Origin: Psilocybe cubensis
Taxonomy: Eukaryota
DNA: 64,000 nucleotides
Assembly: GCA_017499595.2 (NCBI GenBank)
Contig: JAFIQS020000017.1
Coordinates: forward strand, 1 to 64,000
Reading direction: 5' to 3'
In this document: one piece after another, positions 1 to 33,908 of the stretch
How the letters are laid out: each line of letters begins with the position of its first letter
Position numbering within the stretch: the stretch's first letter is position 1
Translations under genes and position numbers: made by a program
Notes under the pieces: model-generated
Database searches by the model: none
Told to the model about the DNA's origin: nothing
Seen by the model: only the letters and a program-made list of their open reading frames with translations

Positions 1-168
1 AAACCCTAAACCCTAAACCCTAAACCCTAAACCCTAAACCCTAAACCCTAAACCCTAAACCCTAAACCCTAAACCCTAAACCCTAAACCCTAAACCCTAA
101 ACCCTAAACCCTAAACCCTAAACCCTAAACCCTAAACCCTAAACCTAAACCCTAAACCCTAAACCCTA
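1..168. repeat. Telomere, (TAAACCC)n / (TTTAGGG)n, left chromosome end
   Basis: Window begins with uninterrupted TAAACCC heptamers, C-rich strand on +. One TAAACC variant at 140-145. Confidence 0.96.
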
Positions 169-723
169 AGCCCTAACCTAACCCCAACCCTAAGCTAACT
201 AAGTCTAACCTTAGTAGGAAGTAAGGTAGGCGTGTGAACTTCCGAAAGGCATGTGATTGTGAAGGGCCGGATCTAATTTAGTACATGGGAAAAGTTACTT
301 AGTACCTCGGGAAAAGTTCCTTAGTACCGTGGAAACATTTTTGATGGACCGGATCATGAACTGTCCAATTAAGATTCACAACAATCAATCAATTGATTGT
401 TAGGTAAGGACCCAGGTAAGCTATTTATACTCTTGACATGAGAATATTCCCATGTCACGGTTACTCGGAGCCACGTAACCAGAGTATTTTATATCCATGT
501 GATTCACATCACAGTCAATAACCCACGATGTCAAAGAACAAAAGTGTTGGATCCACTTTTGACAGGTTACCATGTGCCACATCGACCCGTGACACTCTGT
601 TCATCAGAGATCTGTCTAACTTGACAATAAACATTGACAGATTTGTGATAGTCGGTAAGATACATGACAGCTGCGCAGCATCACTTCACGCGCTGTCATC
701 GGATGTTCCAGAACATTCCTTCT

Positions 724-1728
724 AAGAATAGCCACTGAAGAGTCTATAAAGACGAAAGGGCTGGCTGCTGATAACAATCAACAGCCCTCAAGTACTCGTC
801 CTCTCCCAAACTCCTGCCGCTTGTGCCTTCCCAACTCATCCGGGAGCCCTTTCGTCACTGATCTTGCCCTTGACTCGGGGACGTTTCATCGACATGTTGG
901 CTGCCTCACGGCAAGCGGGGCCCTTTTTCTTTCACTCGCTCACGCCTTCTATGTTGGGTTACGGAGGTCATACAAACTCGTTTTAGTCTAGCTGCGGGGT
1001 TATCCAGCTATGATGACTTTGTAATTCGAGGGCGCGCAGTTCTTCAATGGGTATGGACATCAGGTGAGAGTACACTGGGGGTTGTCAGGACCAGCTCTGC
1101 TGGATACGCTCCTGGCAAGTCGGTTGCAGCCGGCGACACTACCGAATTGCTGGGACGTCCTAAAGCTTGTGGGTACCGCCGACCGCTGGAAACAGCCTAG
1201 GCACCGGTGGCGACCGGGTATGGTAACAATCCCCAAGATTCAGCGAAAGCTGGAATGGATAATCAGCAGCGAATCCGTAACGGTCACGCCGACGGAAGCG
1301 TTCAACGACTAGGTGGTAGTGGGGTCTTCGGATCTTAAGATATAGTCTTGGGAGTGGGGAAACCCACATCTGGTATCTAAACCGCGCCTCGCTGCTTACG
1401 AGGACGGCCCGAAGTCCAGAACCGCTTAAAACGCGGGTGACCCGGCCTCCCCTTAGTAAAGGGAGTTAACACAAGGATGGACAAATAGTTCGTCGCCGGA
1501 AATGAACCTGTGGCTGTAATGGCTGATGTGGCGCCCCTTGGTAAAGGGCTTAAAGGGTATTAGCCTGCCATGTCCAATGGCATGAGAGTGTCCCTTGGTA
1601 AAGGACTTAATAGGCAATAGCCTGCTCTTTTGTCATGAGCGGTATGTAGTGATCGTTTGCCTGTACGGTAGCGCCCATTGCTTGCACTGGTCCACGCCCG
1701 TAAAAAATCACGAGCCGCTGGCCTTCTT
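724..1728 (+). ncRNA. Hammerhead ribozyme split by a group I intron (halves 724-788 and 1718-1728)
   Basis: GCCA-CTGAAGA-GTCT/ATAA/AGAC-GAAA-GGGCTG...CAGCCC-T | insert | C-TGGC. Joining the halves reproduces the intact copy at 6064-6139. Confidence 0.9.
789..1717 (+). mobile_element. Group I intron, subgroup IC1-like, 929 nt (copy 1)
   Basis: Boundaries are defined by comparison with empty units: exon ends in U, intron ends in G. IGS GGGGTTGT (1078-1085) pairs with exon ACAGCCCT (781-788) with the U.G wobble. P AATTGCTGGGA 1145-1155, Q AATCAGCAGC 1261-1270, R GTTCAACGACTA 1300-1311, S AAGATATAGTCT 1337-1348. P3 CACTACC/GGTAGTG, P8 with TTCG loop, P9 GTGGG-GAAA-CCCAC, P5b GCTG-GAAA-CAGC. Confidence 0.93.
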
Positions 1729-1829
1729 TCCATTTAACTCACAGTTTAAACAAGTCGCTCGCACCTCGCTTCGCTCGGTGCTCGCTCCCCCCCTAAACCC
1801 AACGACTTTGCTATTACCCAACAGCTACT

Positions 1830-4800
1830 ATGTCTTCCACTTACTCTGCTGCCTTCTCTCGTGCCATGTCCCCCACCCTGGACGCACTCACCCAGGCTGT
1901 CGTCAACAACACAGTTTTTGGCGTCAACGACGAAGCTGGCCGCCACAACGCCCTCATCGACGAGTTGGCCACTGTCGTCATCAAGAAAATAGCTGAGTGC
2001 CGCTCCATTGACCAGATTGTAGACTGCGTCTTTTTTGACTATCGTGCTGCCCTTAGGGAGTTTCTCCTCAACCTCGCATCGTGGTGCGATAAGAGGGAAA
2101 CAGTCAAGGCTAGCCTCGAGCGCCTTGAACTTGCCGTTAGCGCAGGCAACACCCCCAATCGCCTTCGGGTGAAGGCTCCCGAGTTCCAACTTACGAAGGA
2201 ATTCGCGGATGCCGGGTCAGCGGAAGCTCTTCGAGTTTCCTCTACGTTCTCCACCGCTCGTGATGTCTTCCAAAAGGCAATCAACGACGGCGCCATTCAG
2301 GCGAAAAAGGACGAACTGGCCTTTTGGGATGATAAATGCGCACTCAATAACTGTTATGAAGCTGCTGCCCTCATCGTTAAGACAACTTACGATGATCGCA
2401 AATCCAGCTATAAGCTCCCCGTTTTCTCTACAGACAACAAGGGAGTTCGTCGAATAACAGATTGGGTAGTGTCACCGCAGAAGAAGGCTGAATGCAGCGC
2501 ATTGCAAACCATTTTGCCAGCCATCTTCTCTCATATCAAACAGATTGTCAACTTGCGCCACCGCGCTTTGGCAATCAAGATTGAGAAAAAGCGGTCGACT
2601 GCGGCAACAGCCGATGTCGAGATGGCCGATGCGACCAAACCAGGTCCATCGATTCAATCCCTTATTGATAAGGGCTTGAATGCACGTCTCAAGAAGCTCA
2701 ACCTTGGATCTGTGGGCAAGAAGGCAAGTTCTCGTAACCCTTCACCCATAACTCTGGATACTAATTACTATTCTAATTACCCAGACTTTGTCTGGCCAGA
2801 ATTCGTCCAAGGCTCCTCAACCTCAGGCCAAGAAAGCTGGCCCTTCGAAATTCAAACCCTCGTCGACGCCTTCGCAGAAGAAGCCCCAAACCAAGGCTTC
2901 CAACAAGGTCGACAACAAGAAGAAAGGGAAGGGGAGAGCTCCCGTCAAGAACGATCCAAAGGGAAAGGGAAAGGCAAGAGCCTAGACGCGCGGTCTAATG
3001 TAGTACCTTTTACGTCGGTAAGACCCGCCTTCCCCAACTCTATTCCTGACGATATACTCACCATGACTAAAACAGACGCAGTTTCTTTTGTACACTTACA
3101 TACGCCGATCTCATTCTTGTTGGCTGGCCAGTATCGTAGTAGTGTACACTGTAGTCCTGGTGTGGTGGTCCCTGTAGATATAGCAAATGATTTGTCACTC
3201 GGACTCAATTATATGTTTTTTACTCTACCTTCTCAAAGTCTGATCATGCAAGCATGGAATGATTTTCAACGAAGAATAAGATGGCGTATCTATTTTTTGT
3301 TTAAGGAAGGCATGAACAAACCTTTTGATCCAGATTACGGAGTAAGCTCAAAAAAGAAAGAGAAACCTCCAGTATTACCGCAATACATGGAACTTGGCCT
3401 TTCGATGGGACGTCGGTACGTGCAACGCACGATCGCAAGTATCCCGGAAGAAGCCCTTACGGAGATGCGAAAGCACGCGTTCTCTCCTAAAAGGGACAAG
3501 ATCCGTAAGTTTCTTATCGATAACAACTATGTTATTACGATGACAGATAAGAATCTTGGCCTCGCGGTGTCTGAACGCGACTGGATATTAAGGAATGAGC
3601 TCAATCTTCTTAAAGATGAACGTAACTATGAAGAGTTAGAATTCGAAGTTGCGCAAGAAGTAATGAAGAGCAAAATGATCCAGATGCAAACTCTTGCACA
3701 TACCGTCGAAGATGAACATCTGTTTCTATTTGAACTTGGGTTGTCTCGATTCTTTCTATCGAATGTACCGGAAGACGGATCATCGTTCAAGTACCCTCAA
3801 TTTCATGGTATACCTAAAATCCACAAAAAACCTACTGGATTTAGGCCCATAATTCCGTGTCACTCTGTAGTATTTAATCCTGCAGCCAAGTTTGTATCAA
3901 AAGAGCTTAAGCCGATTATTAAATCGACTCCTTCAATCATTCACGGAACGAAGGATCTCTTTACGAGATTAAGCCAATTGCGTATAGACCCCAAACGACA
4001 ATGGTATTTTGTCACCGGGGATGTAGTTGCTTTCTATCCCAATATTCCGTTGGACTTGTGCATCGAAATCGTTTGTAATATGTACGAGGAATGGTTACTC
4101 AACGCTTCGGAAGAAAACACTGCATTAGCCCATATTAATCCAAATTCGTTAGAGAATAACTTGGTTAAATTGGGCATCTTTAAACGTGCTATCGAGATTG
4201 GCAATACGCAATTGATAACACAACATGGGTCTAGATATTTTAGACAAAAAAATGGCCTCGCAATGGGCGTCGCGGATTCTCCGGACCTTGCTAACCTCTT
4301 TGGAGCCCATTTTGAAATAAAGTCAAAAATCTTAGACCACCCAAACGTGGCCTTCTATGGAAGGTACATCGACGATTGTTTCGCAATTGTTTACGCCGAG
4401 TCCGAAGCACTTGCACTTAATCTTATTAAAGAAACAATAAAGTTCGATGGTTGTGTTATCGAATGGGCTGTTTCCTCGTCGGGATGTCAATTTCTCGATG
4501 CTTTCATATTCAAGGAGTCTGGAAAACTTCATTGGAAGCCATTTGTCAAGACAGGAAACAACCGAGAACGAGTTCCATGGGTATCACATCATCCTTTGGA
4601 CGTCAAACGTGGCGTCTACATTGGAGAGTTATCCAGGTTAGCCGTGCTATGTAGTACCAAGGAAATCTACATCGGAGCAATTAGAGACCTTAACGCTCTC
4701 TATTTGATGCGCGGTTATCCCGAAAACCTAGTCATGTCTTGGTGTAAGAAGAATATACAAGAACGTTGGGAAAAGCGATTCGCTTTACGAGTCGCAGAGC

Positions 4801-5360
4801 ACGACGAATCCATTCTTGTACTTAAAACCAGATTTGATCAGGTATGGAATTGGTTTTCAGCTGCTGAACTTGGAAAAACTGTTACCGAGTACTGGTCGGC
4901 ATGGTATGAACATGCCGAGAAAGGTTTGTATAGTGCAGACTCGTCCAGACCCCTTATCAAACCAGATCCAAATTACGTTCACGACCTCGATGATGTTCGC
5001 CCGGAGCTGTTCACACAGATCCTCGTGGACGGAGAAACTGAGTTCGTACCGGATTTGAGGAAGATAGGACTACTCGGAAGTCGTTGGATAGTATCGCGAA
5101 AACGCAATACTAATCTTTTCGACCTTGCAAATGTGTGGAAGAAAACAGTCTTTCGTAAACTGGATGAAGACATCGCTGAAAAAGGTGGTGTTGTTCCCGA
5201 AACTCAAAACGTTAATGAAACTTATCATTCTGCTTTAGTTGAAGCTGCTGAACAGATAAGTATCGAAAGTGATAACGAGATAATACTTCATAGACGTTCA
5301 ATCTCACAAGAGAGGGAACATCCAGAATTCGGCAGAATATCCAAATCTTACAACCGATGA
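1830..5360 (+). CDS. Penelope-like ORF1-reverse transcriptase polyprotein, 1176 aa, subfamily A (copy 1)
   Basis: HGIPKIHKKPTGFRPII, FVTGDVVAFYPNI (motif A), QKNGLAMGVADSPDLANLF (B), YGRYIDDCF (C), FLD, thumb region RGYP. Helical N-terminal region; no endonuclease domain. Confidence 0.93.
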   Translation: MSSTYSAAFSRAMSPTLDALTQAVVNNTVFGVNDEAGRHNALIDELATVVIKKIAECRSIDQIVDCVFFDYRAALREFLLNLASWCDKRETVKASLERLELAVSAGNTPNRLRVKAPEFQLTKEFADAGSAEALRVSSTFSTARDVFQKAINDGAIQAKKDELAFWDDKCALNNCYEAAALIVKTTYDDRKSSYKLPVFSTDNKGVRRITDWVVSPQKKAECSALQTILPAIFSHIKQIVNLRHRALAIKIEKKRSTAATADVEMADATKPGPSIQSLIDKGLNARLKKLNLGSVGKKASSRNPSPITLDTNYYSNYPDFVWPEFVQGSSTSGQESWPFEIQTLVDAFAEEAPNQGFQQGRQQEEREGESSRQERSKGKGKGKSLDARSNVVPFTSVRPAFPNSIPDDILTMTKTDAVSFVHLHTPISFLLAGQYRSSVHCSPGVVVPVDIANDLSLGLNYMFFTLPSQSLIMQAWNDFQRRIRWRIYFLFKEGMNKPFDPDYGVSSKKKEKPPVLPQYMELGLSMGRRYVQRTIASIPEEALTEMRKHAFSPKRDKIRKFLIDNNYVITMTDKNLGLAVSERDWILRNELNLLKDERNYEELEFEVAQEVMKSKMIQMQTLAHTVEDEHLFLFELGLSRFFLSNVPEDGSSFKYPQFHGIPKIHKKPTGFRPIIPCHSVVFNPAAKFVSKELKPIIKSTPSIIHGTKDLFTRLSQLRIDPKRQWYFVTGDVVAFYPNIPLDLCIEIVCNMYEEWLLNASEENTALAHINPNSLENNLVKLGIFKRAIEIGNTQLITQHGSRYFRQKNGLAMGVADSPDLANLFGAHFEIKSKILDHPNVAFYGRYIDDCFAIVYAESEALALNLIKETIKFDGCVIEWAVSSSGCQFLDAFIFKESGKLHWKPFVKTGNNRERVPWVSHHPLDVKRGVYIGELSRLAVLCSTKEIYIGAIRDLNALYLMRGYPENLVMSWCKKNIQERWEKRFALRVAEHDESILVLKTRFDQVWNWFSAAELGKTVTEYWSAWYEHAEKGLYSADSSRPLIKPDPNYVHDLDDVRPELFTQILVDGETEFVPDLRKIGLLGSRWIVSRKRNTNLFDLANVWKKTVFRKLDEDIAEKGGVVPETQNVNETYHSALVEAAEQISIESDNEIILHRRSISQEREHPEFGRISKSYNR
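2724..2784 (+). other. Putative 61-nt GC-AG spliceosomal intron inside the ORF. Equivalents at 9539-9599, 14685-14745, 19827-19887, 25034-25094, 30376-30436
   Basis: AAG|GCAAGT donor, CTAAT branch-like motifs, CCAG| acceptor, and length typical of fungal introns. Splicing joins codon 298 in frame to the Lys-rich frame ending at 2985. Confidence 0.75.
2785..2985 (+). CDS. Alternative-frame exon 2 giving the basic C-terminal tail of a spliced ~364-aa ORF1 protein (1830-2723 + 2785-2985)
   Basis: TLSGQNSSKAPQPQAKKAGPSK...KKKGKGRAPVKNDPKGKGKARA*. Open in all six copies; the A/B difference includes an in-frame 3-nt indel and K/R swaps. Confidence 0.7.
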   Translation, partial: TLSGQNSSKAPQPQAKKAGPSKFKPSSTPSQKKPQTKASNKVDNKKKGKGRAPVKNDPKGKGKARA

Positions 5361-6063
5361 AAAGAATACTAGCGCGTAAGGCGTAAAGCATTAGAAAAAA
5401 ACCCTAACCGTAAGTATTCCTTGCTACAAAGTAACAAACATCTACTTACAAGCAACACATTGGATTAAATAGCTAAACCTAAACCTAAACCCTAAACCCT
5501 AAACCCTAAGCCCTAACCTAACCCCAACCCTAAGCTAACTAAGTCTAACCTTAGTAGGAAGTAAGGTAGGCGTGTGAACTTCCGAAAGGCATGTGATTGT
5601 GAAGGGCCGGATCTAATTTAGTACATGGGAAAAGTTACTTAGTACCTCGGGAAAAGTTCCTTAGTACCGTGGAAACATTTTTGATGGACCGGATCATGAA
5701 CTGTCCAATTAAGATTCACAACAATCAATCAATTGATTGTTAGGTAAGGACCCAGGTAAGCTATTTATACTCTTGACATGAGAATATTCCCATGTCACGG
5801 TTACTCGGAGCCACGTAACCAGAGTATTTTATATCCATGTGATTCACATCACAGTCAATAACCCACGATGTCAAAGAACAAAAGTGTTGGATCCACTTTT
5901 GACAGGTTACCATGTGCCACATCGACCCGTGACACTCTGTTCATCAGAGATCTGTCTAACTTGACAATAAACATTGACAGATTTGTGATAGTCGGTAAGA
6001 TACATGACAGCTGCGCAGCATCACTTCACGCGATGTCATCGGATGTTCCAGAACATTCCTTCT

Positions 6064-6139
6064 AAGAATAGCCACTGAAGAGTCTATAAAGACGAAAGGG
6101 CTGGCTGCTGATAACAATCAACAGCCCTCTGGCCTTCTT
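6064..6139 (+). ncRNA. Type I hammerhead ribozyme, intact (stem III variant A); predicted cleavage after C6129
   Basis: Stem I GCCA/TGGC extended by AAGAA/TTCTT, core CTGAAGA, stem II GTCT-ATAA-AGAC, GAAA, stem III GGGCTG/CAGCCC, then the T-C site. Confidence 0.92.
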
Positions 6140-6795
6140 TCCATTTAACTCACAGTTTAAACAAGTCGCTCGCACCTCGCTTCGCTCGGTGCTCGCTCCC
6201 CCCCTAAACCTAAACCCTAAACCCTAAACCCTAAACCCTAACCTAACCCCAACCCTAAGCTAACTAAGTCTAACCTTAGTAGGAAGTAAGGTAGGCGTGT
6301 GAACTTCCGAACGGCATGTGATTGTGAAGGGCCGGATCTAATTTAGTACATGGGAAAAGTTACTTAGTACTTCGGGAAAAGTTCCTTAGTACCGTGGAAA
6401 CATTTTTGATGGACCGGATCATGAACTGTCCAATTAAGATTCACAACAATCAATCATTCTATTGTTTGATTGTTAGGTAAGGACCCAGGTAAGCTATTTA
6501 TACTCTAGACATGTGAATATTCCCATGTCGCGGTTACTCGGAGCCACGTAACCAGAGTAATCTATATCCATGTGATTCACATCACAGTCAATAACCCACG
6601 ATGTCAAAGAACAAAAGTGTTGGATCCACTTTTGACAGGTTACCATGTGCCACATCGACCCGTGACACTCTGTTCATCAGAGACCTGTCTAACTTGACAA
6701 TAAACATTGACAGATTTGTGATAGTCGGTAAGATACATGACAGCTGCGCAGCATCACTTCACGCGCTGTCATCGGATGTCTAGAACATTCCTTCT

Positions 6796-6871
6796 AAGAA
6801 TAGCCACTGAAGAGTCTATAAAGACGAAAGGGCTGGTTGTTGGGATCCCCCAACAGCCCTCTGGCCTTCTT
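6796..6871 (+). ncRNA. Type I hammerhead ribozyme, intact (stem III variant B)
   Basis: Same core and stems; distal stem III is GTTGTTGGGATCCCCCAA. Confidence 0.92.
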
Positions 6872-7601
6872 TCTATTTCAAACTCACAGTTTAAACTAGT
6901 CGCTCGCACCTCGCTTCGCTCGGTGCTCGCTCCCCCCCTAAACCCTAAACCTAAACCCTAAACCCTAAACCCTAAACCCTAACCTAACCCCAACCCTAAG
7001 CTAACTAAGTCTAACCTTAGTAGGAAGTAAGGTAGGCGTGTGAACTTCCGAACGGCATGTGATTGTGAAGGGCCGGATCTAATTTAGTACATGGGAAAAG
7101 TTACTTAGTACTTCGGGAAAAGTTCCTTAGTACCGTGGAAACATTTTTGATGGACCGGATCATGAACTGTCCAATTAAGATTCACAACAATCAATCATTC
7201 TATTGTTTGATTGTTAGGTAAGGACCCAGGTAAGCTATTTATACTCTAGACATGTGAATATTCCCATGTCGCGGTTACTCGGAGCCACGTAACCAGAGTA
7301 ATCTATATCCATGTGATTCACATCACAGTCAATAACCCACGATGTCAAAGAACAAAAGTGTTGGATCCACTTTTGACAGGTTACCATGTGCCACATCGAC
7401 CCGTGACACTCTGTTCATCAGAGACCTGTCTAACTTGACAATAAACATTGACAGATTTGTGATAGTCGGTAAGATACATGACAGCTGCGCAGCATCACTT
7501 CACGCGCTGTCATCGGATGTCTAGAACATTCCTTCTAAGAATAGCCACTGAAGAGTCTATAAAGACGAAAGGGCTGGTTGTTGGGATCCCCCAACAGCCC
7601 T

Positions 7602-8530
7602 CAAGTACTCGTCCTCTCCCAAACTCCTGCCGCTTGTGCCTTCCCAACTCATCCGGGAGCCCTTTCGTCACTGATCTTGCCCTTGACTCGGGGACGTTTC
7701 ATCGACATGTTGGCTGCCTCACGGCAAGCGGGGCCCTTTTTCTTTCACTCGCTCACGCCTTCTATGTTGGGTTACGGAGGTCATACAAACTCGTTTTAGT
7801 CTAGCTGCGGGGTTATCCAGCTATGATGACTTTGTAATTCGAGGGCGCGCAGTTCTTCAATGGGTATGGACATCAGGTGAGAGTACACTGGGGGTTGTCA
7901 GGACCAGCTCTGCTGGATACGCTCCTGGCAAGTCGGTTGCAGCCGGCGACACTACCGAATTGCTGGGACGTCCTAAAGCTTGTGGGTACCGCCGACCGCT
8001 GGAAACAGCCTAGGCACCGGTGGCGACCGGGTATGGTAACAATCCCCAAGATTCAGCGAAAGCTGGAATGGATAATCAGCAGCGAATCCGTAACGGTCAC
8101 GCCGACGGAAGCGTTCAACGACTAGGTGGTAGTGGGGTCTTCGGATCTTAAGATATAGTCTTGGGAGTGGGGAAACCCACATCTGGTATCTAAACCGCGC
8201 CTCGCTGCTTACGAGGACGGCCCGAAGTCCAGAACCGCTTAAAACGCGGGTGACCCGGCCTCCCCTTAGTAAAGGGAGTTAACACAAGGATGGACAAATA
8301 GTTCGTCGCCGGAAATGAACCTGTGGCTGTAATGGCTGATGTGGCGCCCCTTGGTAAAGGGCTTAAAGGGTATTAGCCTGCCATATCCAATGGCATGAGA
8401 GTGTCCCTTGGTAAAGGACTTAATAGGCAATAGCCTGCTCTTTTGTCATGAGCGGTATGTAGTGATCGTTTGCCTGTACGGTAGCGCCCATTGCTTGCAC
8501 TGGTCCACGCCCGTAAAAAATCACGAGCCG
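7602..8530 (+). mobile_element. Group I intron IC1-like, 929 nt (copy 2), interrupting the hammerhead that starts at 7537
   Basis: Same insertion point CAGCCCT|...GAGCCG|CTGGCC; near-identical to copy 1. Confidence 0.93.
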
Positions 8531-8644
8531 CTGGCCTTCTTTCTATTTCAAACTCACAGTTTAAACTAGTCGCTCGCACCTCGCTTCGCTCGGTGCTCGC
8601 TCCCCCCCTAAACCCAACGACTTTGCTATCACCCATCAGTTACC

Positions 8645-11600
8645 ATGTCATCCCAATACTCTGCTGCATTCTCTCGTGCCATGTCCCCTACCCTGGACGC
8701 ACTCACCCAGGCCGTCGTCAACAACACTGTCTTCGGCGTCAACGATGAAGCAGGCCGCCATAACGCTCTTATCGACGAGCTGGCCACTGTGGTCATCAAA
8801 AAAATAGCTGAGTGCCGCTCCGTTGACCAAGTCATAGACTGCGTCTTTTTTGACTATCGTGCTGCCCTCAGGGAGTTTCTCCTCAACCTCGCATCGTGGT
8901 GCGACAAGAGGGAAACAGTCAAGGCTAGCCTCGAGCGCCTTGAATCTGCCGTTAGCGCAGGCAACACGCCCAATCGCCTTAAGGTGAAGGCACCCGAGTT
9001 CCAACTTACGAAGGAATTCGCGGATGCCGGGTCAGCGGAGGCTCTTCGAGTCTCCACTACGTTCTCTTCCGCTCGTGATGCCTTCCAAAAGGCAATTAAC
9101 GACGGCGCCGTTCAGGCGAAAAAGGACGAGCTGGCTTTTTGGGATGATAAATGCGCACTCAACTCTTGCTACGAAGCTGCTGCCCTCATCGTTAAGGCAA
9201 CTTACGATGATCGCAAATCCAGCTACAAGCTCCCTGTTTTCTCTACAGACAACAAGGGAGTTCGACGTATAGCAGAGTGGGTAGTGTCTCCGCAAAAGAA
9301 AGCCGAATGCAGTGCGCTGCAAACTATACTGCCGGCGATCTTTTCTCATATCAAACAGATTGTCAACATGCGCCACCGCGCCTTGGCAATTAAGATTGAG
9401 AAAAAGCGGACGACTGCGGCAACAGCCGATGTCGAGATGGCCGATGCGACCAAACCAGGTCCATCGATTCAATCCCTTATTGATAAGGGCTTGAATGCAC
9501 GTCTCAAAAAGCTCAACCTTGGATCTGTGGGCAAGAAGGCAAGTTTTCGTAACCCTTCACCCATAATTCTGGACACTAATTATTACTCTAATTACCCAGA
9601 CTTTGTCTGGCCAGAATTCGTCCAAGGCTCCTCAACCTCAGGCCAGGAAAGCTGGCCCTTCGAAACCCAAGTCGTCGTCGACGCCTTCGCAGAGGAAGCC
9701 TCAAACCAAGGCTTCCAACAAGGTCGACAACAAGAAGAAAGGGAAGGGGAGAGCTCCCGTCAAGAACAACGATCCAAAGGGAAAGGGAAAGGCAAGAGCC
9801 TAGACGCGCGGTCTACTGTAGCATCATTTACGTCGGTGAGACCCGCCTTCCCCAACTCTATTCCTGACGATATACTCACCATGACTAAAACAGACGCAGT
9901 TTCTTTTGTACACCTCAATACCCCGATTTCATTCTTATTGGCTGGCCAGTATAGATCTAGTGTACACTGTAGTCCTGGTGTTTCGGTCCCTGTTGATGTA
10001 GCAAATGATTTATCTCTTGGACTCAATTATATGTTTTTTACACTGCCTTCTAAAAATCTGATCATGCAAGCATGGAATGATTTTCAACGAAGAATAAGAT
10101 GGCGTATCTATTTTTTGTTTAAAGAAGGCATGAATAAACCTTTCGATCCAGACTATGGAGTAAGCTCTAAAAAGAAAGAGAAACCTCCAATGTTACCGCA
10201 ATTTATGGAACTTGGCCTTTCAATGGGACGTCGGTACGTTATTAAAACGATCGCAAGTATCCCGGAAGAAGCCCTTAAAGAGATGCGAAAGCACGCGTTC
10301 TCTCCTAAAAGGGACAAGATCCAAAAGTTTCTTTTCGATAACAACTATGTTATTACGATGACAGATAAGAATCTTGGCCTCGCGGTGTCTGAACGCGACT
10401 GGATATTAAGGAATGAGCTCAATCTTCTTGAAGATGAACGCAACTACGAAGAGTTAGAATTCGAAGTTGCGCAAGAAGTTATGAAGAGCAAAATGATTCA
10501 GATGCAAACTCTCGCACGTACCGTCGAAGATGAACATCTGTTTCTATTTGAACTTGGGTTGTCTCGATTCTTTCTATCGAATGTACCGGAAGACGGATCA
10601 TCGTTCAAGTATCCTCAATTTCATGGTATACCTAAAATCCACAAGAAACCTACTGGATTTAGGCCCATAATTCCGTGTCACTCTGTAGTATTTAATCCTG
10701 CAGCCAAGTTTGTATCAAAAGAGCTTAAGCCGATTATTAAATCGACTCCTTCAATCATTCACGGAACGAAGGATCTCTTTACGAGATTAAGCCAATTGCG
10801 TATAGACCCCAAACGACAATGGTATTTTGTCACCGGGGATGTAGTTGCTTTCTATCCCAATATTCCGTTGGACTTGTGCATCGAAATCGTTTGTAATATG
10901 TACGAGGAATGGTTACTCAACGCTTCGGAAGAGAACACTGCATTAGCCCATATTAATCCAAATTCGTTAGAGAATAACTTGGTTAAATTGGGCATCTTTA
11001 AACGTGCTATCGAGATTGGCAATACGCAATTGATAACACAACATGGGTCTAGATATTTTAGACAAAAAAATGGCCTCGCAATGGGCGTCGCGGATTCTCC
11101 GGACCTTGCTAACCTCTTTGGAGCCCATTTTGAAATAAAGTCAAATATCTTAGACCACCCAAACGTGGCCTTCTATGGAAGGTACATCGACGATTGTTTC
11201 GCAATTGTTTACGCCGAGTCCGAAGCACTTGCACTTAATCTTATTAAAGAAACAATAAAGTTCGATGGTTGTGTTATCGAATGGGCTGTTTCCTCGTCGG
11301 GATGTCAATTTCTCGATGCTTTCATATTCAAGGAGTCTGGAAAACTTCATTGGAAGCCATTTGTCAAGACAGGAAACAACCGAGAACGAGTTCCATGGGT
11401 ATCACATCATCCTTTGGACGTCAAACGTGGCGTCTACATTGGAGAGTTATCCAGGTTAGCCGTGCTATGTAGTACCAAGGAAATCTACATCGGAGCAATT
11501 AGAGACCTTAACGCTCTCTATTTGATGCGCGGTTATCCCGAAAACCTAGTCATGTCTTGGTGTAAGAAGAATATACAAGAACGTTGGGAAAAGCGATTCG

Positions 11601-13789: not shown

Positions 13790-16700
13790 ATGTCATCCCA
13801 ATACTCTGCTGCATTCTCTCGTGCCATGTCCCCTACCCTGGACGCACTCACCCAGGCCGTCGTCAACAACACTGTCTTCGGCGTCAACGATGAAGCAGGC
13901 CGCCATAACGCTCTTATCGACGAGCTGGCCACTGTGGTCATCAAAAAAATAGCTGAGTGCCGCTCCGTTGACCAAGTCATAGACTGCGTCTTTTTTGACT
14001 ATCGTGCTGCCCTCAGGGAGTTTCTCCTCAACCTCGCATCGTGGTGCGACAAGAGGGAAACAGTCAAGGCTAGCCTCGAGCGCCTTGAATCTGCCGTTAG
14101 CGCAGGCAACACGCCCAATCGCCTTAAGGTGAAGGCACCCGAGTTCCAACTTACGAAGGAATTCGCGGATGCCGGGTCAGCGGAGGCTCTTCGAGTCTCC
14201 ACTACGTTCTCTTCCGCTCGTGATGCCTTCCAAAAGGCAATTAACGACGGCGCCGTTCAGGCGAAAAAGGACGAGCTGGCTTTTTGGGATGATAAATGCG
14301 GCGCTCAACTCTTGCTACGAAGCTGCTGCCCTCATCGTTAAGGCAACTTACGATGATCGCAAATCCAGCTACAAGCTCCCTGTTTTCTCTACAGACAACA
14401 AGGGAGTTCGACGTATAGCAGAGTGGGTAGTGTCTCCGCAAAAGAAAGCCGAATGCAGTGCGCTGCAAACTATACTGCCGGCGATCTTTTCTCATATCAA
14501 ACAGATTGTCAACATGCGCCACCGCGCCTTGGCAATTAAGATTGAGAAAAAGCGGACGACTGCGGCAACAGCCGATGTCGAGATGGCCGATGCGACCAAA
14601 CCAGGTCCATCGATTCAATCCCTTATTGATAAGGGCTTGAATGCACGTCTCAAAAAGCTCAACCTTGGATCTGTGGGCAAGAAGGCAAGTTTTCGTAACC
14701 CTTCACCCATAATTCTGGACACTAATTATTACTCTAATTACCCAGACTTTGTCTGGCCAGAATTCGTCCAAGGCTCCTCAACCTCAGGCCAGGAAAGCTG
14801 GCCCTTCGAAACCCAAGTCGTCGTCGACGCCTTCGCAGAGGAAGCCTCAAACCAAGGCTTCCAACAAGGTCGACAACAAGAAGAAAGGGAAGGGGAGAGC
14901 TCCCGTCAAGAACAACGATCCAAAGGGAAAGGGAAAGGCAAGAGCCTAGACGCGCGGTCTACTGTAGCATCATTTACGTCGGTGAGACCCGCCTTCCCCA
15001 ACTCTATTCCTGACGATATACTCACCATGACTAAAACAGACGCAGTTTCTTTTGTACACCTCAATACCCCGATTTCATTCTTATTGGCTGGCCAGTATAG
15101 ATCTAGTGTACACTGTAGTCCTGGTGTTTCGGTCCCTGTTGATGTAGCAAATGATTTATCTCTTGGACTCAATTATATGTTTTTTACACTGCCTTCTAAA
15201 AATCTGATCATGCAAGCATGGAATGATTTTCAACGAAGAATAAGATGGCGTATCTATTTTTTGTTTAAAGAAGGCATGAATAAACCTTTCGATCCAGACT
15301 ATGGAGTAAGCTCTAAAAAGAAAGAGAAACCTCCAATGTTACCGCAATTTATGGAACTTGGCCTTTCAATGGGACGTCGGTACGTTATTAAAACGATCGC
15401 AAGTATCCCGGAAGAAGCCCTTAAAGAGATGCGAAAGCACGCGTTCTCTCCTAAAAGGGACAAGATCCAAAAGTTTCTTTTCGATAACAACTATGTTATT
15501 ACGATGACAGATAAGAATCTTGGCCTCGCGGTGTCTGAACGCGACTGGATATTAAGGAATGAGCTCAATCTTCTTGAAGATGAACGCAACTACGAAGAGT
15601 TAGAATTCGAAGTTGCGCAAGAAGTTATGAAGAGCAAAATGATTCAGATGCAAACTCTCGCACGTACCGTCGAAGATGAACATCTGTTTCTATTTGAACT
15701 TGGGTTGTCTCGATTCTTTCTATCGAATGTACCGGAAGACGGATCATCGTTCAAGTATCCTCAATTTCATGGTATACCTAAAATCCACAAGAAACCTACT
15801 GGATTTAGGCCCATAATTCCGTGTCACTCTGTAGTATTTAATCCTGCAGCCAAGTTTGTATCAAAAGAGCTTAAGCCGATTATTAAATCGACTCCTTCAA
15901 TCATTCACGGAACGAAGGATCTCTTTACGAGATTAAGCCAATTGCGTATAGACCCCAAACGACAATGGTATTTTGTCACCGGGGATGTAGTTGCTTTCTA
16001 TCCCAATATTCCGTTGGACTTGTGCATCGAAATCGTTTGTAATATGTACGAGGAATGGTTACTCAACGCTTCGGAAGAGAACACTGCATTAGCCCATATT
16101 AATCCAAATTCGTTAGAGAATAACTTGGTTAAATTGGGCATCTTTAAACGTGCTATCGAGATTGGCAATACGCAATTGATAACACAACATGGGTCTAGAT
16201 ATTTTAGACAAAAAAATGGCCTCGCAATGGGCGTCGCGGATTCTCCGGACCTTGCTAACCTCTTTGGAGCCCATTTTGAAATAAAGTCAAAAATCTTAGA
16301 CCACCCAAACGTGGCCTTCTATGGAAGGTACATCGACGATTGTTTCGCAATTGTTTACGCCGAGTCCGAAGCACTTGCACTTAATCTTATTAAAGAAACA
16401 ATAAAGTTCGATGGTTGTGTTATCGAATGGGCTGTTTCCTCGTCGGGATGTCAATTTCTCGATGCTTTCATATTCAAGGAGTCTGGAAAACTTCATTGGA
16501 AGCCATTTGTCAAGACAGGAAACAACCGAGAACGAGTTCCATGGGTATCACATCATCCTTTGGACGTCAAACGTGGCGTCTACATTGGAGAGTTATCCAG
16601 GTTAGCCGTGCTATGTAGTACCAAGGAAATCTACATCGGAGCAATTAGAGACCTTAACGCTCTCTATTTGATGCGCGGTTATCCCGAAAACCTAGTCATG

Positions 16701-17324
16701 TCTTGGTGTAAGAAGAATATACAAGAACGTTGGGAAAAGCGATTCGCTTTACGAGTCGCAGAGCACGACGAATCCATTCTTGTACTTAAAACCAGATTTG
16801 ATCAGGTATGGAATTGGTTTTCAGCTGCTGAACTTGGAAAGACTGTTACCGAGTACTGGTCGGCATGGTATGAACATGCCGAGAAAGGTTTGTATAGTGC
16901 AGACTCGTCCAGACCCCTTATCAAACCAGATCCAAATTACGTTCACGACCTCGATGATGTTCGCCCGGAGCTGTTCACACAGATCCTCGTGGACGGAGAA
17001 ACTGAGTTCGTACCGGATTTGAGGAAGATAGGACTACTCGGAAGTCGTTGGATAGTATCGCGAAAACGCAATACTAATCTTTTCGACCTTGCAAATGTGT
17101 GGAAGAAAACAGTCTTTCGTAAACTGGATGAAAACATCGCTGAAAAAGGTGGTGTTGTTCCCGAAACTCAAAACGTTAATGAAACTTATCATTCTGCTTT
17201 AGTTGAAGCTGCTGAACAGATAAGTATCGAAAGTGATAACGAGATAATACTTCATAGACGTTCAATCTCACAAGAGAGGGAACATCCAGAATTCGGCAGA
17301 ATATCCAAATCTTACAACCGATGA
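13790..17324 (+). pseudogene. Penelope-like ORF1-RT, subfamily B, +1 frameshift near 14300 (copy 3)
   Basis: AAATGCGGCGCTCAAC versus AAATGCGCACTCAAC in copy 2. The ORF splits into 13790-14341 and 14169-17324. Confidence 0.88.
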
Positions 17325-18755: not shown

Positions 18756-18831
18756 AAGAATAGCCACTGAAGAGTCTATAAAGACGAAAGGGCTGGCTGC
18801 TGATAACAATCAACAGCCCTCTGGCCTTCTT
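18756..18831 (+). ncRNA. Hammerhead ribozyme, intact (variant A), upstream of ORF copy 4
   Basis: Same motif, no intron. Confidence 0.9.
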
Positions 18832-24138: not shown

Positions 24139-27100
24139 ATGTCATCCCAATATTCTGCTGCTTTCTCTCGTGCCATGTCCCCCACCCTGGACGCACTCAC
24201 CCAGGCCGTCGTCAACAACACCGTCTTCGGCGTCAACGATGAAGCAGGCCGCCATAACGCTCTGATCGACGAGCTGGCCACTGTGGTCATCAAAAAAATA
24301 GCTGAGTGCCGCTCCGTTGACCAAGTCATAGACTGCGTCTTTTTTGACTATCGTGCTGCCCTTAGGGAGTTTCTCCACAACCTCGCATCGTGGTGCGATA
24401 AGAGGGAAACAGTCAAGGCTAGCCTCGAGCGCCTTGAATCTGCCGTTAGCGCAGGCAACACGCCCAATCGCCTTAAGGTGAAGGCACCCGAGTTCCAACT
24501 TACGAAGGAATTCGCGGATGCCGGGTCAGCGGAGGCTCTTCGAGTCTCCACTACGTTCTCTTCCGCTCGTGATGCCTTCCAAAAGGCAATTAACGACGGC
24601 GCCGTTCAGGCGAAAAAGGACGAGCTGGCTTTTTGGGATGATAAATGCGGCGCTCAACTCTTGCTACGAAGCTGCTGCCCTCATCGTTAAGGCAACTTAC
24701 GATGATCGCAAATCCAGCTACAAGCTCCCTGTTTTCTCTACAGACAACAAGGGAGTTCGACGTATAGCAGAGTGGGTAGTGTCTCCGCAAAAGAAAGCCG
24801 AATGCAGTGCGCTGCAAACTATACTGCCGGCGATCTTTTCTCATATCAAACAGATTGTCAACATGCGCCACCGCGCCTTGGCAATTAAGATTGAGAAAAA
24901 GCGGACGACTGCGGCAACAGCCGATGTCGAGATGGCCGATGCGACCAAACCAGGTCCATCGATTCAATCCCTTATTGATAAGGGCTTGAATGCACGTCTC
25001 AAAAAGCTCAACCTTGGATCTGTGGGCAAGAAGGCAAGTTTTCGTAACCCTTCACCCATAATTCTGGACACTAATTATTACTCTAATTACCCAGACTTTG
25101 TCTGGCCAGAATTCGTCCAAGGCTCCTCAACCTCAGGCCAGGAAAGCTGGCCCTTCGAAACCCAAGTCGTCGTCGACGCCTTCGCAGAGGAAGCCTCAAA
25201 CCAAGGCTTCCAACAAGGTCGACAACAAGAAGAAAGGGAAGGGGAGAGCTCCCGTCAAGAACAACGATCCAAAGGGAAAGGGAAAGGCAAGAGCCTAGAC
25301 GCGCGGTCTACTGTAGCATCATTTACGTCGGTGAGACCCGCCTTCCCCAACTCTATTCCTGACGATATACTCACCATGACTAAAACAGACGCAGTTTCTT
25401 TTGTACACCTCAATACCCCGATTTCATTCTTATTGGCTGGCCAGTATAGATCTAGTGTACACTGTAGTCCTGGTGTTTCGGTCCCTGTTGATGTAGCAAA
25501 TGATTTATCTCTTGGACTCAATTATATGTTTTTTACACTGCCTTCTAAAAGTCTGATCATGCAAGCATGGAATGATTTTCAACGAAGAATAAGATGGCGT
25601 ATCTATTTTTTGTTTAAAGAAGGCATGAATAAACCTTTCGATCCAGACTATGGAGTAAGCTCTAAAAAGAAAGAGAAACCTCCAATGTTACCGCAATTTA
25701 TGGAACTTGGCCTTTCAATGGGACGTCGGTACGTTATTAAAACGATCGCAAGTATCCCGGAAGAAGCCCTTAAAGAGATGCGAAAGCACGCGTTCTCTCC
25801 TAAAAGGGACAAGATCCAAAAGTTTCTTATCGATAACAACTATGTTATTACGATGACAGATAAGAATCTTGGCCTCGCGGTGTCTGAACGCGACTGGATA
25901 TTAAGGAATGAGCTCAATCTTCTTGAAGATGAACGCAACTACGAAGAGTTAGAATTCGAAGTTGCGCAAGAAGTTATGAAGAGCAAAATGATTCAGATGC
26001 AAACTCTCGCACGTACCGTCGAAGATGAACATCTGTTTCTATTTGAACTTGGGTTGTCTCGATTCTTTCTATCGAATGTACCGGAAGACGGATCATCGTT
26101 CAAGTATCCTCAATTTCATGGTATACCTAAAATCCACAAGAAACCTACTGGATTTAGGCCCATAATTCCGTGTCACTCTGTAGTTTTTAATCCTGCAGCC
26201 AAGTTTGTATCAAAAGAGCTTAAGCCGATTATTAAATCGACTCCTTCAATCATTCACGGAACGAAGGATCTCTTTACGAGATTAAGCCAATTGCGTATAG
26301 ACCCCAAACGACAATGGTATTTTGTCACCGGGGATGTAGTCGCTTTCTATCCCAATATTCCGTTGGACTTGTGCATCGAAATCGTTTGTAGTATGTACGA
26401 GGAATGGTTACTCAACGCTTCGGAAGAAAACACTGCATTAGCCCATATTAATCCAAATTCGTTAGAGAATAACTTGGTTAAATTGGGCATCTTTAAACGT
26501 GCTATCGAGATTGGCAATACGCAATTGATAACACAACATGGGTCTAGATATTTTAGACAAAAAAATGGCCTCGCAATGGGCGTCGCGGATTCTCCGGACC
26601 TTGCTAACCTCTTTGGAGCCCATTTTGAAATAAAGTCAAAAATCTTAGACCACCCAAATGTGGCCTTCTATGGAAGGTACATCGACGATTGTTTCGCAAT
26701 TGTTTACGCCGAGTCCGAAGCACTTGCACTTAATCTTATTAAAGAAACAATAAAGTTCGATGGTTGTGTTATCGAACGGGCTGTTTCCTTGTCGGGATGT
26801 CAATTTCTCGATGCTTTCATATTCAAGGAGTCTGGAAAACTTCATTGGAAGCCATTTGTCAAGACAGGAAACAACCGAGAACGAGTTCCATGGGTATCAC
26901 ATCATCCTTTGGACGTCAAACGTGGCGTCTACATTGGAGAGTTATCCAGGTTAGCCGTGCTATGTAGTACCAAGGAAATCTACATTGGAGCAATTAGAGA
27001 CCTTAACGCTCTCTATTTGATGCGCGGTTATCCCGAAAACCTAGTCATGTCTTGGTGTAAGAAGAATATACAAGAACGTTGGAAAAAGCGATTCGCTTTA

Positions 27101-27673
27101 CGAGTCGCAGAGCACGACGAATCCATTCTTGTACTTAAAACCAGGTTTGATCAGGTATGGAATTGGTTTTCAGCTGCTGAACTTGGAAAAACTGTTACCA
27201 AGTACTGGTCGGCATGGTATGAACATGCCGAGAAAGGTCTGTATAGTGCAGACTCGTCCAGACCCCTTATCAAACCAGATCCAAATTACGTTCACGACCT
27301 CGATGATGTTCGCCCGGAGCTGTTCACACAGATCCTCGTGGACGGAGAAACTGAGTTCGTACCGGATTTGAGGAAGATAGGACTACTCGGAAGTCGTTGG
27401 ATAGTATCGCGAAAACGCAATACTAATCTTTTCGACCTTGCAAATGTGTGGAAGAAAACAGTCTTTCGTAAACTGGATGAAGACATTGCCGAAAAAGGTG
27501 GTGTTGTTCCCGAAACTCAAAACGTTAATGAAACTTATCATTCTGCTCTAGTTGAAGCTGCTGAGCAGATAAGTATCGAAAGTGATAACGAGATAATACT
27601 TCATAGACGTTCAATCTCACAAGAGAGGGAACATCCAGAATTCGGCAGAATATCCAAATCTTACAACCGATGA
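24139..27673 (+). pseudogene. Penelope-like ORF1-RT, subfamily B-like, same +1 frameshift near 24650 (copy 5)
   Basis: Same ATGCGGCGCTC lesion as copy 3, plus private substitutions (e.g. VIERAVSLSG for VIEWAVSSSG). Confidence 0.88.
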
Positions 27674-28440: not shown

Positions 28441-29369
28441 CAAGTACTCGTCCTCTCCCAAACTCCTGCCGCTTGTGCCTTCCCAACTCATCCGGGAGCC
28501 CTTTCGTCACTGATCTTGCCCTTGACTCGGGGACGTTTCATCGACATGTTGGCTGCCTCACGGCAAGCGGGGCCCTTTTTCTTTCACTCGCTCACGCCTT
28601 CTATGTTGGGTTACGGAGGTCATACAAACTCGTTTTAGTCTAGCTGCGGGGATATCCAGCTATGATGACTTTGTAATTCGAGGGCGCGCAGTTCTTCAAT
28701 GGGTATGGACATCAGGTGAGAGTACACTGGGGGTTGTCAGGACCAGCTCTGCTGGATACGCTCCTGGCAAGTCGGTTGCAGCCGGCGACACTACCGAATT
28801 GCTGGGACGTCCTAAAGCTTGTGGGTACCGCCGACCGCTGGAAACAGCCTAGGCACCGGTGGCGACCGGGTATGGTAACAATCCCCAAGATTCAGCGAAA
28901 GCTGGAATGGATAATCAGCAGCGAATCCGTAACGGTCACGCCGACGGAAGCGTTCAACGACTAGGTGGTAGTGGGGTCTTCGGATCTTAAGATATAGTCT
29001 TGGGAGTGGGGAAACCCACATCTGGTATCTAAACCGCGCCTCGCTGCTTACGAGGACGGCCCGAAGTCCAGAACCGCTTAAAACGCGGGTGACCCGGCCT
29101 CCCCTTAGTAAAGGGAGTTAACACAAGGATGGACAAATAGTTCGTCGCCGGAAATGAACCTGTGGCTGTAATGGCTGATGTGGCGCCCCTTGGTAAAGGG
29201 CTTAAAGGGTATTAGCCTGCCATGTCCAATGGCATGAGAGTGTCCCTTGGTAAAGGACTTAATAGGCAATAGCCTGCTCTTTTGTCATGAGCGGTATGTA
29301 GTGATCGTTTGCCTGTACGGTAGCGCCCATTGCTTGCACTGGTCCACGCCCGTAAAAAATCACGAGCCG
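28441..29369 (+). mobile_element. Group I intron IC1-like, 929 nt (copy 3), interrupting the hammerhead that starts at 28376
   Basis: Same insertion point and motifs as copies 1 and 2. Confidence 0.93.
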
Positions 29370-33790: not shown

Positions 33791-33855
33791 TCCATTTAAC
33801 TCACAGTTTAAACAAGTCGCTCGCACCTCGCTTCGCTCGGTGCTCGCTCCCCCCC

Positions 33856-33908
33856 TAAACCCTAAACCCTAAACCCTAAACCCTAAACCCTAAACCCTAA
33901 ACCCTAAA
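33856..33908. repeat. Proximal telomeric tract (7 x TAAACCC) joining the array to unique subtelomeric DNA
   Basis: Heptamer run followed abruptly by non-repetitive sequence. Confidence 0.93.

Follow-up and report, generated by a model that had tools for sequence, protein, structure and literature searches.

How could a group I intron come to lie in the nuclear genome outside of the ribosomal RNA (rRNA) genes, and by which route could it have spread there? According to the accessible sections of three reviews (PMC3679873, PMC8395846, PMC9223047), the group I introns known from nuclei are without exception located in rRNA genes. The question is raised by the first 64,000 nucleotides of contig JAFIQS020000017.1 from Psilocybe cubensis (assembly GCA_017499595.2, forward strand; this whole 64-kb stretch is called the window in the following). 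The window represents a chromosome end and carries, at 789..1717 of the + strand, a structurally complete group I intron of 929 nt in nuclear sequence that is not ribosomal DNA (rDNA), with U788 as last base of the 5' exon and G1717 as last base of the intron. It interrupts a predicted hammerhead ribozyme in the terminal repeat of a telomeric retroelement, and the same intron is found in two further repeat units and is absent from nine.

A nuclear group I intron with non-rRNA flanks had been proposed by a first-pass annotation, which was made from the letters of the sequence. The core was aligned by the Rfam covariance model RF00028 (Intron_gpI) at 992-1369 and 7805-8182 with 73 bits each (E 1.3e-16) and at 28725-29021 with 70.9 bits, the gathering score of the family being 50 bits. 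Since only these three matches reached the gathering score when the whole window was scanned with Rfam, the window contains no rRNA, and the flanks described in the annotation proved to be retroelement repeat. Inside the intron no other Rfam family scored at its gathering threshold, and the matches below threshold in 1-9000 were at chance level. Every listed pair of the core helices is standard, and all helices and motifs named in the annotation were found in place. The catalytic core from P3 to P9 (1137..1367, + strand, by Rfam alignment and pair check) is composed of P3 (1137-1144 / 1314-1321, 8 bp), P4 (6 bp), a branched P5abc-like extension with GAAA loops (1161-1256), P6/P6a, P7 (1305 and 1307-1311 / 1343-1348) with the bulged C1306 and the G-binding pair G1307-C1347, P8 (1322-1335) with a UUCG loop and P9 (1354-1367) with a GAAA loop. 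It is preceded by the hairpins P2 and P2.1 (1086..1135, + strand), which were obtained from a sub-domain fold. P9.0 is formed by G1350-G1351 and C1715-C1716, and its 3' strand is adjoined by the terminal G1717 (1715..1717, + strand).

The internal guide sequence, which forms the 3' strand of P1 (1076..1085, + strand), pairs at ten of ten positions with exon bases 781-788 and intron bases 789-790. Within it, GGGGTTGT (1078-1085) matches the exon bases 781-788 in eight of eight pairs, including the wobble U788-G1078 at the splice site, which bears out the earlier suggestion that the intron is adapted to this host exon. The same P1, lengthened by 2 + 6 pairs, was recovered in an unconstrained minimum-free-energy fold of 775-1732. 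The loop of P1 contains an insertion of about 270 nt without a gene (798..1067, + strand), which is closed by a P1 extension of 6 bp (792-797 / 1068-1073), and a peripheral extension of about 345 nt is found at the 3' side (1368..1714, + strand). The latter harbors three copies of a hairpin motif of 14-15 nt (at 1449-1463, 1534-1568 and 1591-1625), two of which lie within a 57-nt tandem duplication. That no homing endonuclease is involved had also been assumed from the outset: neither an endonuclease gene nor a remnant of one was detected in the intron, as none of the ten stop-to-stop frames tested (57-136 aa) gave a Pfam match better than E 0.11, and those frames that are contained entirely in the intron are at most 108 aa long. 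The G+C content of the intron is 0.52-0.56 vs 0.41-0.43 in the repeat.

The exact boundaries could be established by comparison with empty sites. The motif ACAGCCCT occurs 12 times in the window and is directly followed by the intron at three sites and by CTGGCC at the nine others. Because these nine empty sites read ...ACAGCCCT|CTGGCC..., the intron is defined as 789-1717 with 929 nt; its in-silico deletion, like that of 7602-8530 in the second copy, yields the empty site letter for letter (77 nt compared). An alternative parse, 790-1718, is allowed by a one-base ambiguity. Group I chemistry calls for a U before the intron and a G at its end, and by comparison with the nine empty sites the intron is preceded by U788 and terminates with G1717. 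A spliceosomal intron is ruled out by the CA...CG ends, and no direct repeat longer than 1 nt is present at the junction.

The sequence split by the intron matches the type I hammerhead ribozyme in its motifs CUGANGA and GAAA, the pair 15.1-16.1, H17 and the helices I-III, as predicted by motif and helix check. The upstream portion (724..788, + strand) comprises the 5' strand of helix I (724-734), CUGAAGA (735-741), helix II (742-753), GAAA (754-757), helix III (758-787) and U16.1 (788). The 3' exon (1718..1800, + strand) starts with C17 (1718) and the 3' strand of helix I (1719-1728), followed by a spacer of about 80 nt and a telomere-type motif which ends the unit. Intact intron-less hammerheads are located on the + strand at 18756..18831 and at 6796..6871. 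The former belongs to u18820, which is twinned with the intron-bearing u788 (type A), the latter to u6860, which is twinned with the type B unit of the second intron copy. Both the empty twin and the in-silico spliced form show standard hammerhead pairs throughout, and with the intron present two of the four proximal helix I pairs fail, namely the two beside the cleavage site. An intron adjacent to hammerhead halves had been described in the annotation; the hammerhead is indeed there, but the insertion point is not merely adjacent to it, as it lies inside the catalytic core between U16.1 and C17, one base 5' of the predicted cleavage site C17|U. In P1, the guide of the intron pairs with U16.1 and the preceding 3' strand of helix III of the hammerhead. 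Helix III itself is present in three variants in the window and in a fourth one in reads, with differing sequence and a hairpin kept in each. Rfam alignments to the RAGATH-1 hammerhead covering the cleavage site and both helix I strands were obtained at empty sites only. The assignment as a hammerhead is based on the motif and helix checks together with fungal hammerheads of the same style from Penelope-like elements (PLEs), as far as these are described in the accessible part of PMC4209133. An unconstrained fold of the region favours an alternative pairing, which was counted neither way. Because the intron keeps the helix I strands and the cleavage site apart, the hammerhead cannot form in its presence; by these predicted pairings, the intron and a functional hammerhead exclude each other, and the intact hammerhead would be rebuilt by exact excision.

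The second intron copy (7602..8530, + strand, in a type B unit) differs from the first at one position (the equivalent of 1572 G>A) and so does the third copy (28441..29369, + strand, in a type C unit; the equivalent of 1000 T>A), so that the three 929-nt introns mutually differ at 1-2 of 929 positions in three flank contexts. Over 691 aligned columns of the host repeat, 40 differences were counted for A vs B, 18 for A vs C and 28 for B vs C. When copies 1 and 2 are compared, the flanks (600 nt upstream and 3.7 kb downstream) show 204 differences in 4301 positions vs one in 929 for the intron (Fisher p = 1e-16), and the nearest flank differences are found at -10 and +14 from the splice sites. 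Conversely, intron-bearing and intron-less units of the same lineage are close to identical: u788 and u18820 (type A) show no difference over 680 nt, the intron-bearing u7601 shows none to the intron-less u6860 (compared over 680 nt), u12947 and u18099, and u28440 differs from the intron-less u33779 at four positions. The existence of the intron, its exact site and its pattern of presence and absence are thus evident from the DNA. The simplest reading of this pattern is that RNAs of different lineages received one intron sequence by site-specific insertion, with the 8-nt pairing kept at all 12 sites as guide and reverse transcription as the means of fixation; loss through reverse transcription of spliced RNA would have run alongside. 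Both gain and loss would require accurate splicing chemistry at these bonds.

The three introns at 788, 7601 and 28440 are each located in the repeat directly upstream of an intact open reading frame (ORF), and the repeats downstream of the same ORFs (6128, 12947, 33779) are empty. Three of the six repeats directly upstream of ORFs are filled, vs none of the six others (hypergeometric 0.09, not significant). This distribution may hint at a role in keeping the RNA of repeat plus ORF uncut, or it may be due to chance.

The host of the intron is a retroelement array at the chromosome end. Telomere repeats of the CCCTAA type, C-rich strand, can be read directly at 1..190 (+ strand) and grade into the degenerate repeats which open each terminal-repeat unit. 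They are followed by a 33.9-kb head-to-tail array of Penelope-like elements, which ends at 33,908 and is closed by interstitial telomere repeats (33850..33908, + strand). Beyond these, unique subtelomeric DNA begins, in which an ORF of 867 aa with ankyrin repeats is found at 50587-53190. The array comprises twelve copies of a terminal repeat (pLTR) of about 680 nt, each opening with degenerate telomere repeats and closing with the hammerhead, the 80-nt spacer and the telomere-type motif. The most telomere-proximal one is the type A unit u788, whose upstream part extends over 132..788 (+ strand; about 12 copies by self-BLAST). In addition there are six ORF units on the + strand, four of them intact (1176-1177 aa) and two split. 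The split ORFs at 13790-17324 and 24139-27673, both in intron-less copies, consist of overlapping frames of 183 aa and 1051 aa and are probably frameshifted.

The first ORF (1830..5360, + strand, 1176 aa) begins 112 nt 3' of the intron and encodes a putative reverse transcriptase (RT) with the motifs DKN and YIDD. Proteins named from Psilocybe cubensis share 99% identity with it, and its fungal and metagenomic relatives number in the hundreds; in an alignment of 21 homologues, T572-D573-K574-N575 and Y846-I847-D848-D849 do not vary. Its language-model look-alikes (Atlas) are rotifer clusters with RVT_1, DUF8422 and HTH_animal. A Pfam scan of the ORF returned no RT domain, although the RT motifs are clear, while precomputed lists give PF00078, PF28514 and PF26215; elements of this type can therefore escape routine annotation. 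A sequence search against the PDB yielded nothing significant, with the RT Drt3a as best match (E 0.067). A GIY-YIG endonuclease was not detected by Pfam at E up to 1, at which one domain of unknown function appeared at chance level, in the same scan that also missed the RT. The assignment as RT is based on the motifs, the protein names given by the source and the Atlas look-alikes. For Coprina-type PLEs, location at chromosome ends and flanking telomere repeats are given as criteria in the accessible parts of PMC13159263 and PMC8557442. Both features are present here, together with a single ORF with DKN and RT motifs. Taken with the telomeric position, the motifs and relatives of the ORF fit these published descriptions of an endonuclease-less PLE of the Coprina type.

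Independent read sets contain the intron as well. In the raw DNA reads of run X22 the whole intron is covered by about 80-118 reads per bin, the repeat by about 1,200-1,600 and the ORF by about 320-400. Assuming a genome of about 40-47 Mb, this depth would correspond to two to three intron copies. An intron depth so far below the depth of the repeat would also speak against a copy of at least 85% likeness in mitochondria or in an rDNA array of high copy number. Among the X22 reads, three helix III variants are seen at intron-less junctions, and the intron itself occurs in several variants. In 212 X22 reads the spacer (around 1800) is followed by irregular C-rich telomere-like repeats instead of the ORF, so that many repeat units there would end directly in telomere-type tracts. 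Contigs of the runs X8 and X9, which are labelled as other organisms, carry the intron too, and one X8 contig (record 7) bridges the 3' junction (1200-1758). No helix is broken by the four substitutions listed for X8 in 1137-1367: three affect joining segments, and the fourth, 1333 T>C, replaces G-U by G-C in P8. The P1-loop variant of X8 shows 13 differences and two gaps over 932-1084 (153 nt), and this region thus seems less constrained. In run X23, which is guessed to be RNA, a single contig of 351 nt matches 1718-1797, and none covers the intron, from which nothing follows on expression. This contig begins at most 2 nt from the position of hammerhead cleavage and 3' splicing; past 1797 it continues with unrelated sequence and may derive from another locus or a processed transcript.

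As an explanation for these observations we consider it probable that the intron splices, reverse-splices into the repeat RNA of other lineages and is fixed by the RT of the element, while spliced RNA gives rise to the empty twins. The intron would splice itself out of element transcripts. Once freed and led by its 8-nt guide, the intron would reverse-splice at ACAGCCCU|C into repeat RNA from other lineages that is still uncleaved. The RT of the element would copy the intron-bearing RNA onto a chromosome end, by which the intron would become fixed in DNA without a homing endonuclease, and reverse transcription of spliced RNA would produce the intron-less twins. From the near-identical introns in diverged lineages, the intron-less twins and the flank differences starting at -10 and +14 we infer, with good support, that the intron is active and has travelled by RNA, the route which the first-pass annotation had put forward. 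On this reading the intron would be a parasite of a parasite and its target the most conserved RNA site of the element, much as rDNA introns use conserved sites of rRNA.

The same pattern could have arisen otherwise. If the intron were old and predated the split into types A, B and C, it would have been lost repeatedly via spliced RNA, its copies would have been kept alike by gene conversion limited to the intron, and no recent reverse splicing would be needed. Nine empty sites among 12 and intron-less twins in every lineage agree with such a history; moreover, telomeric tandem arrays often recombine, and heteroduplex extension could be halted by the strongly diverged loop of helix III at 10-24 nt 5' of the intron. 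However, in every lineage the conversion tracts would have to end no more than 10 nt away from the intron on one side and 13 nt on the other, and the flanks of u788 and u7601 are not mosaic, with 0 of 680 differences to their own lineage. At a flank divergence of 5.8%, an intron older than the split should carry about 50-54 differences (about 54 expected between copies 1 and 2), but one is seen, even though the P1-loop region is able to vary, as the X8 variant shows. We regard an old intron as unlikely. Spread at the DNA level would start from a break at an empty site, caused by an endonuclease acting in trans or by telomere damage, and end with repair from an intron-bearing copy. It would profit from a site conserved in 12 of 12 units and would correspond to the usual route of mobile group I introns, as far as PMC3679873 is accessible. 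DNA-level conversion is disfavoured, however, because it should carry nearby flank markers along and none were co-converted despite the differences at -10 and +14; with neither an endonuclease ORF nor a remnant in the intron, homing or ectopic conversion appears very unlikely.

Two further possibilities would leave the intron without a mobility of its own. The RT might have jumped from the 5' end of a hammerhead-cut RNA to free intron RNA and from there to the 3' end of another cut RNA, so that the intron would be an inert passenger. End-to-end template jumping is known for related RTs, and in its alternative parse, 790-1718, the insert coincides exactly with the cleavage site C17|U of the hammerhead. 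Yet a freed intron with its added 5' G and the end G1717 predicts two extra bases upstream and one fewer downstream than seen, the 8/8 guide-exon pairing and the P1 extension would be left unexplained, and the identical event would be needed three times in different lineages, which makes such a capture highly improbable. It could also be suspected that the insert is a decayed inert fragment, or that rDNA or organelle DNA was joined to the repeat in an assembly chimera, given that telomeric repeats are hard to assemble and that the intron is known from DNA alone. Against a chimera, which the annotation itself had named as a danger, speak the three full copies with both junctions each and the independent reads and contigs, including the X22 reads and the X8 contig across the 3' junction. 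In addition, the X22 depth of the intron is far below that of the repeat, the core is intact, and a G+C content of 0.55 is unlike that of fungal mitochondrial DNA. An artefact or dead relic is scarcely conceivable in view of this.

Several points nevertheless weigh against an active intron moving by RNA. Splicing, the excised intron and reverse splicing are deduced from DNA, and the scheme presupposes a replication cycle of the element that is assumed both as to the template RNA and as to the timing of the hammerhead cut. P10 is weak, with G1077-C1718 as its only pair, and self-splicing could suffer from the P1-loop insertion of 270 nt and from the 3' extension of 345 nt. The scores of the Rfam hammerhead models are below threshold, with 23-25.3 vs 56.3 bits for RAGATH-1-hammerhead and 19.5 vs 48.5 bits for Hammerhead_3. 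An old intron homogenised by intron-confined gene conversion would be conceivable within one array, if improbable for the reasons given above, and all of the evidence derives from one chromosome end and three read sets of close relatives. Finally, a scan of metagenomes by a pattern derived from the J6/7-P7 and J8/7 motifs of the intron, which was too general, returned at least 119 loci. Among these no close relative was found beyond the core motifs, the best BLAST match listed having 50 bits over 54 nt.

The RT of the element is likewise absent from the matches listed for these loci. Thirteen of the metagenome loci were scanned with Rfam and included one small subunit (SSU) rDNA, one large subunit (LSU) rDNA and several loci with multiple introns and no rRNA match. 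The J6/7-P7 plus J8/7 core motif also occurs in introns of giant viruses. A freshwater contig (L066, 3490-9653, with the look-alike L012) is peculiar in carrying at least seven group I introns in about 6 kb without rRNA; its genes encode a fragment of a giant-virus major capsid protein, HSP70, a protein kinase, a patatin and an HNH endonuclease. In the standard classification, IC1 introns are characterized by P2 and P2.1, a P5abc-type extension and peripheral helices at P9. Compared by architecture alone, the present intron shows P2/P2.1 and the branched P5 extension as in IC1 and may be called IC1-like. Its P5 extension shares the A-rich motif ...AUGGUAA(A/C)AA... with an intron in a eukaryotic LSU rRNA gene from one of the metagenome loci (L119). 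A source in rDNA, as assumed in the annotation, may be one possibility.

A more far-reaching proposal goes beyond the RNA route. The intron might be an active hyperparasite at the RNA level which completes the group I mobility cycle by means of a telomerase-like RT and whose splicing in addition acts as a switch over the hammerhead. As long as it is unspliced, the intron would block hammerhead cleavage and keep the RNA of repeat plus ORF whole as a template, and splicing would restore cleavage. We put this combination forward tentatively and hold it to be rather doubtful as a whole.

In the open-access literature, supplements aside, no group I intron was found to be described from a Penelope-like element or from any other place outside of nuclear rDNA, and the present intron would be a clear exception to the restriction to rDNA. 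For nuclear rDNA introns, the accessible part of PMC3679873 states that spread by reverse splicing has been inferred from phylogenies and that the steps of reverse transcription and integration are without evidence. In the present case the target is RNA of an element which is routinely reverse-transcribed and integrated, so that the missing step of mobility would come free, and identical introns in diverged lineages with exact empty twins look like the product of such a pathway. The locus could serve as a natural test bed for reverse splicing in a cultivable and non-pathogenic mushroom. That one ribozyme interrupts another, and possibly gates it, would moreover be a rare arrangement.

The comparison with known systems, which relies on the accessible parts of the respective sources, places the intron closest to the IC1 introns of nuclear rDNA, such as that of the Tetrahymena LSU and those of fungal and lichen SSU and LSU. 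With these it shares the Rfam family, P2/P2.1, the branched P5 with GAAA loops, P9.0, the U-G wobble and the terminal G. For these introns, too, spread by reverse splicing has been proposed (PMC1299323, PMC3679873). Unlike in rDNA, the host is a retrotransposon repeat which is presumably transcribed by RNA polymerase II, and the target is the core of another ribozyme. Likewise, the P1-loop insertion and the 3' extension are unusually long, and the reverse-transcription step, termed "still lacking" for rDNA introns (PMC3679873), would be supplied by the host element.

For the interrupted ribozyme, the nearest counterparts are the hammerheads described by Cervera and De la Pena 2014 (PMC4209133) in fungal PLEs. 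These are of type I with a large helix III and are located in the flanking repeats of endonuclease-less telomeric PLEs, as is the case here, and one of them was active in vitro; a group I intron inside a hammerhead is not mentioned in the accessible part of that paper. A parallel is provided by the Penelope element of Drosophila virilis, in which the end of an intron coincides with helix I of the hammerhead, so that the hammerheads of spliced and unspliced RNA differ (PMC4209133), but that intron is of another kind, namely spliceosomal. IStrons, which combine a bacterial group I intron with IS200/IS605, resemble the present case in that an intron is joined to a mobile element and its splicing clears the insert from host RNA. 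Their intron, however, bears transposase genes and moves as DNA, whereas here a non-coding cargo of a retroelement would move as RNA; the absence of a Pfam-matching ORF from the intron and the eukaryotic telomere setting set it apart from IStrons. Two ribozymes are also nested in one transcript in the twin-ribozyme group I introns of Didymium and Naegleria, but in these the second ribozyme lies inside the intron and in rDNA, while here the intron lies inside the second ribozyme and outside of rDNA. Retrohoming group II introns, finally, use base-pairing-guided reverse splicing followed by reverse transcription in a comparable way; they encode their own RT and insert into DNA, whereas the present intron would insert into RNA and depend on an RT borrowed from the host element.

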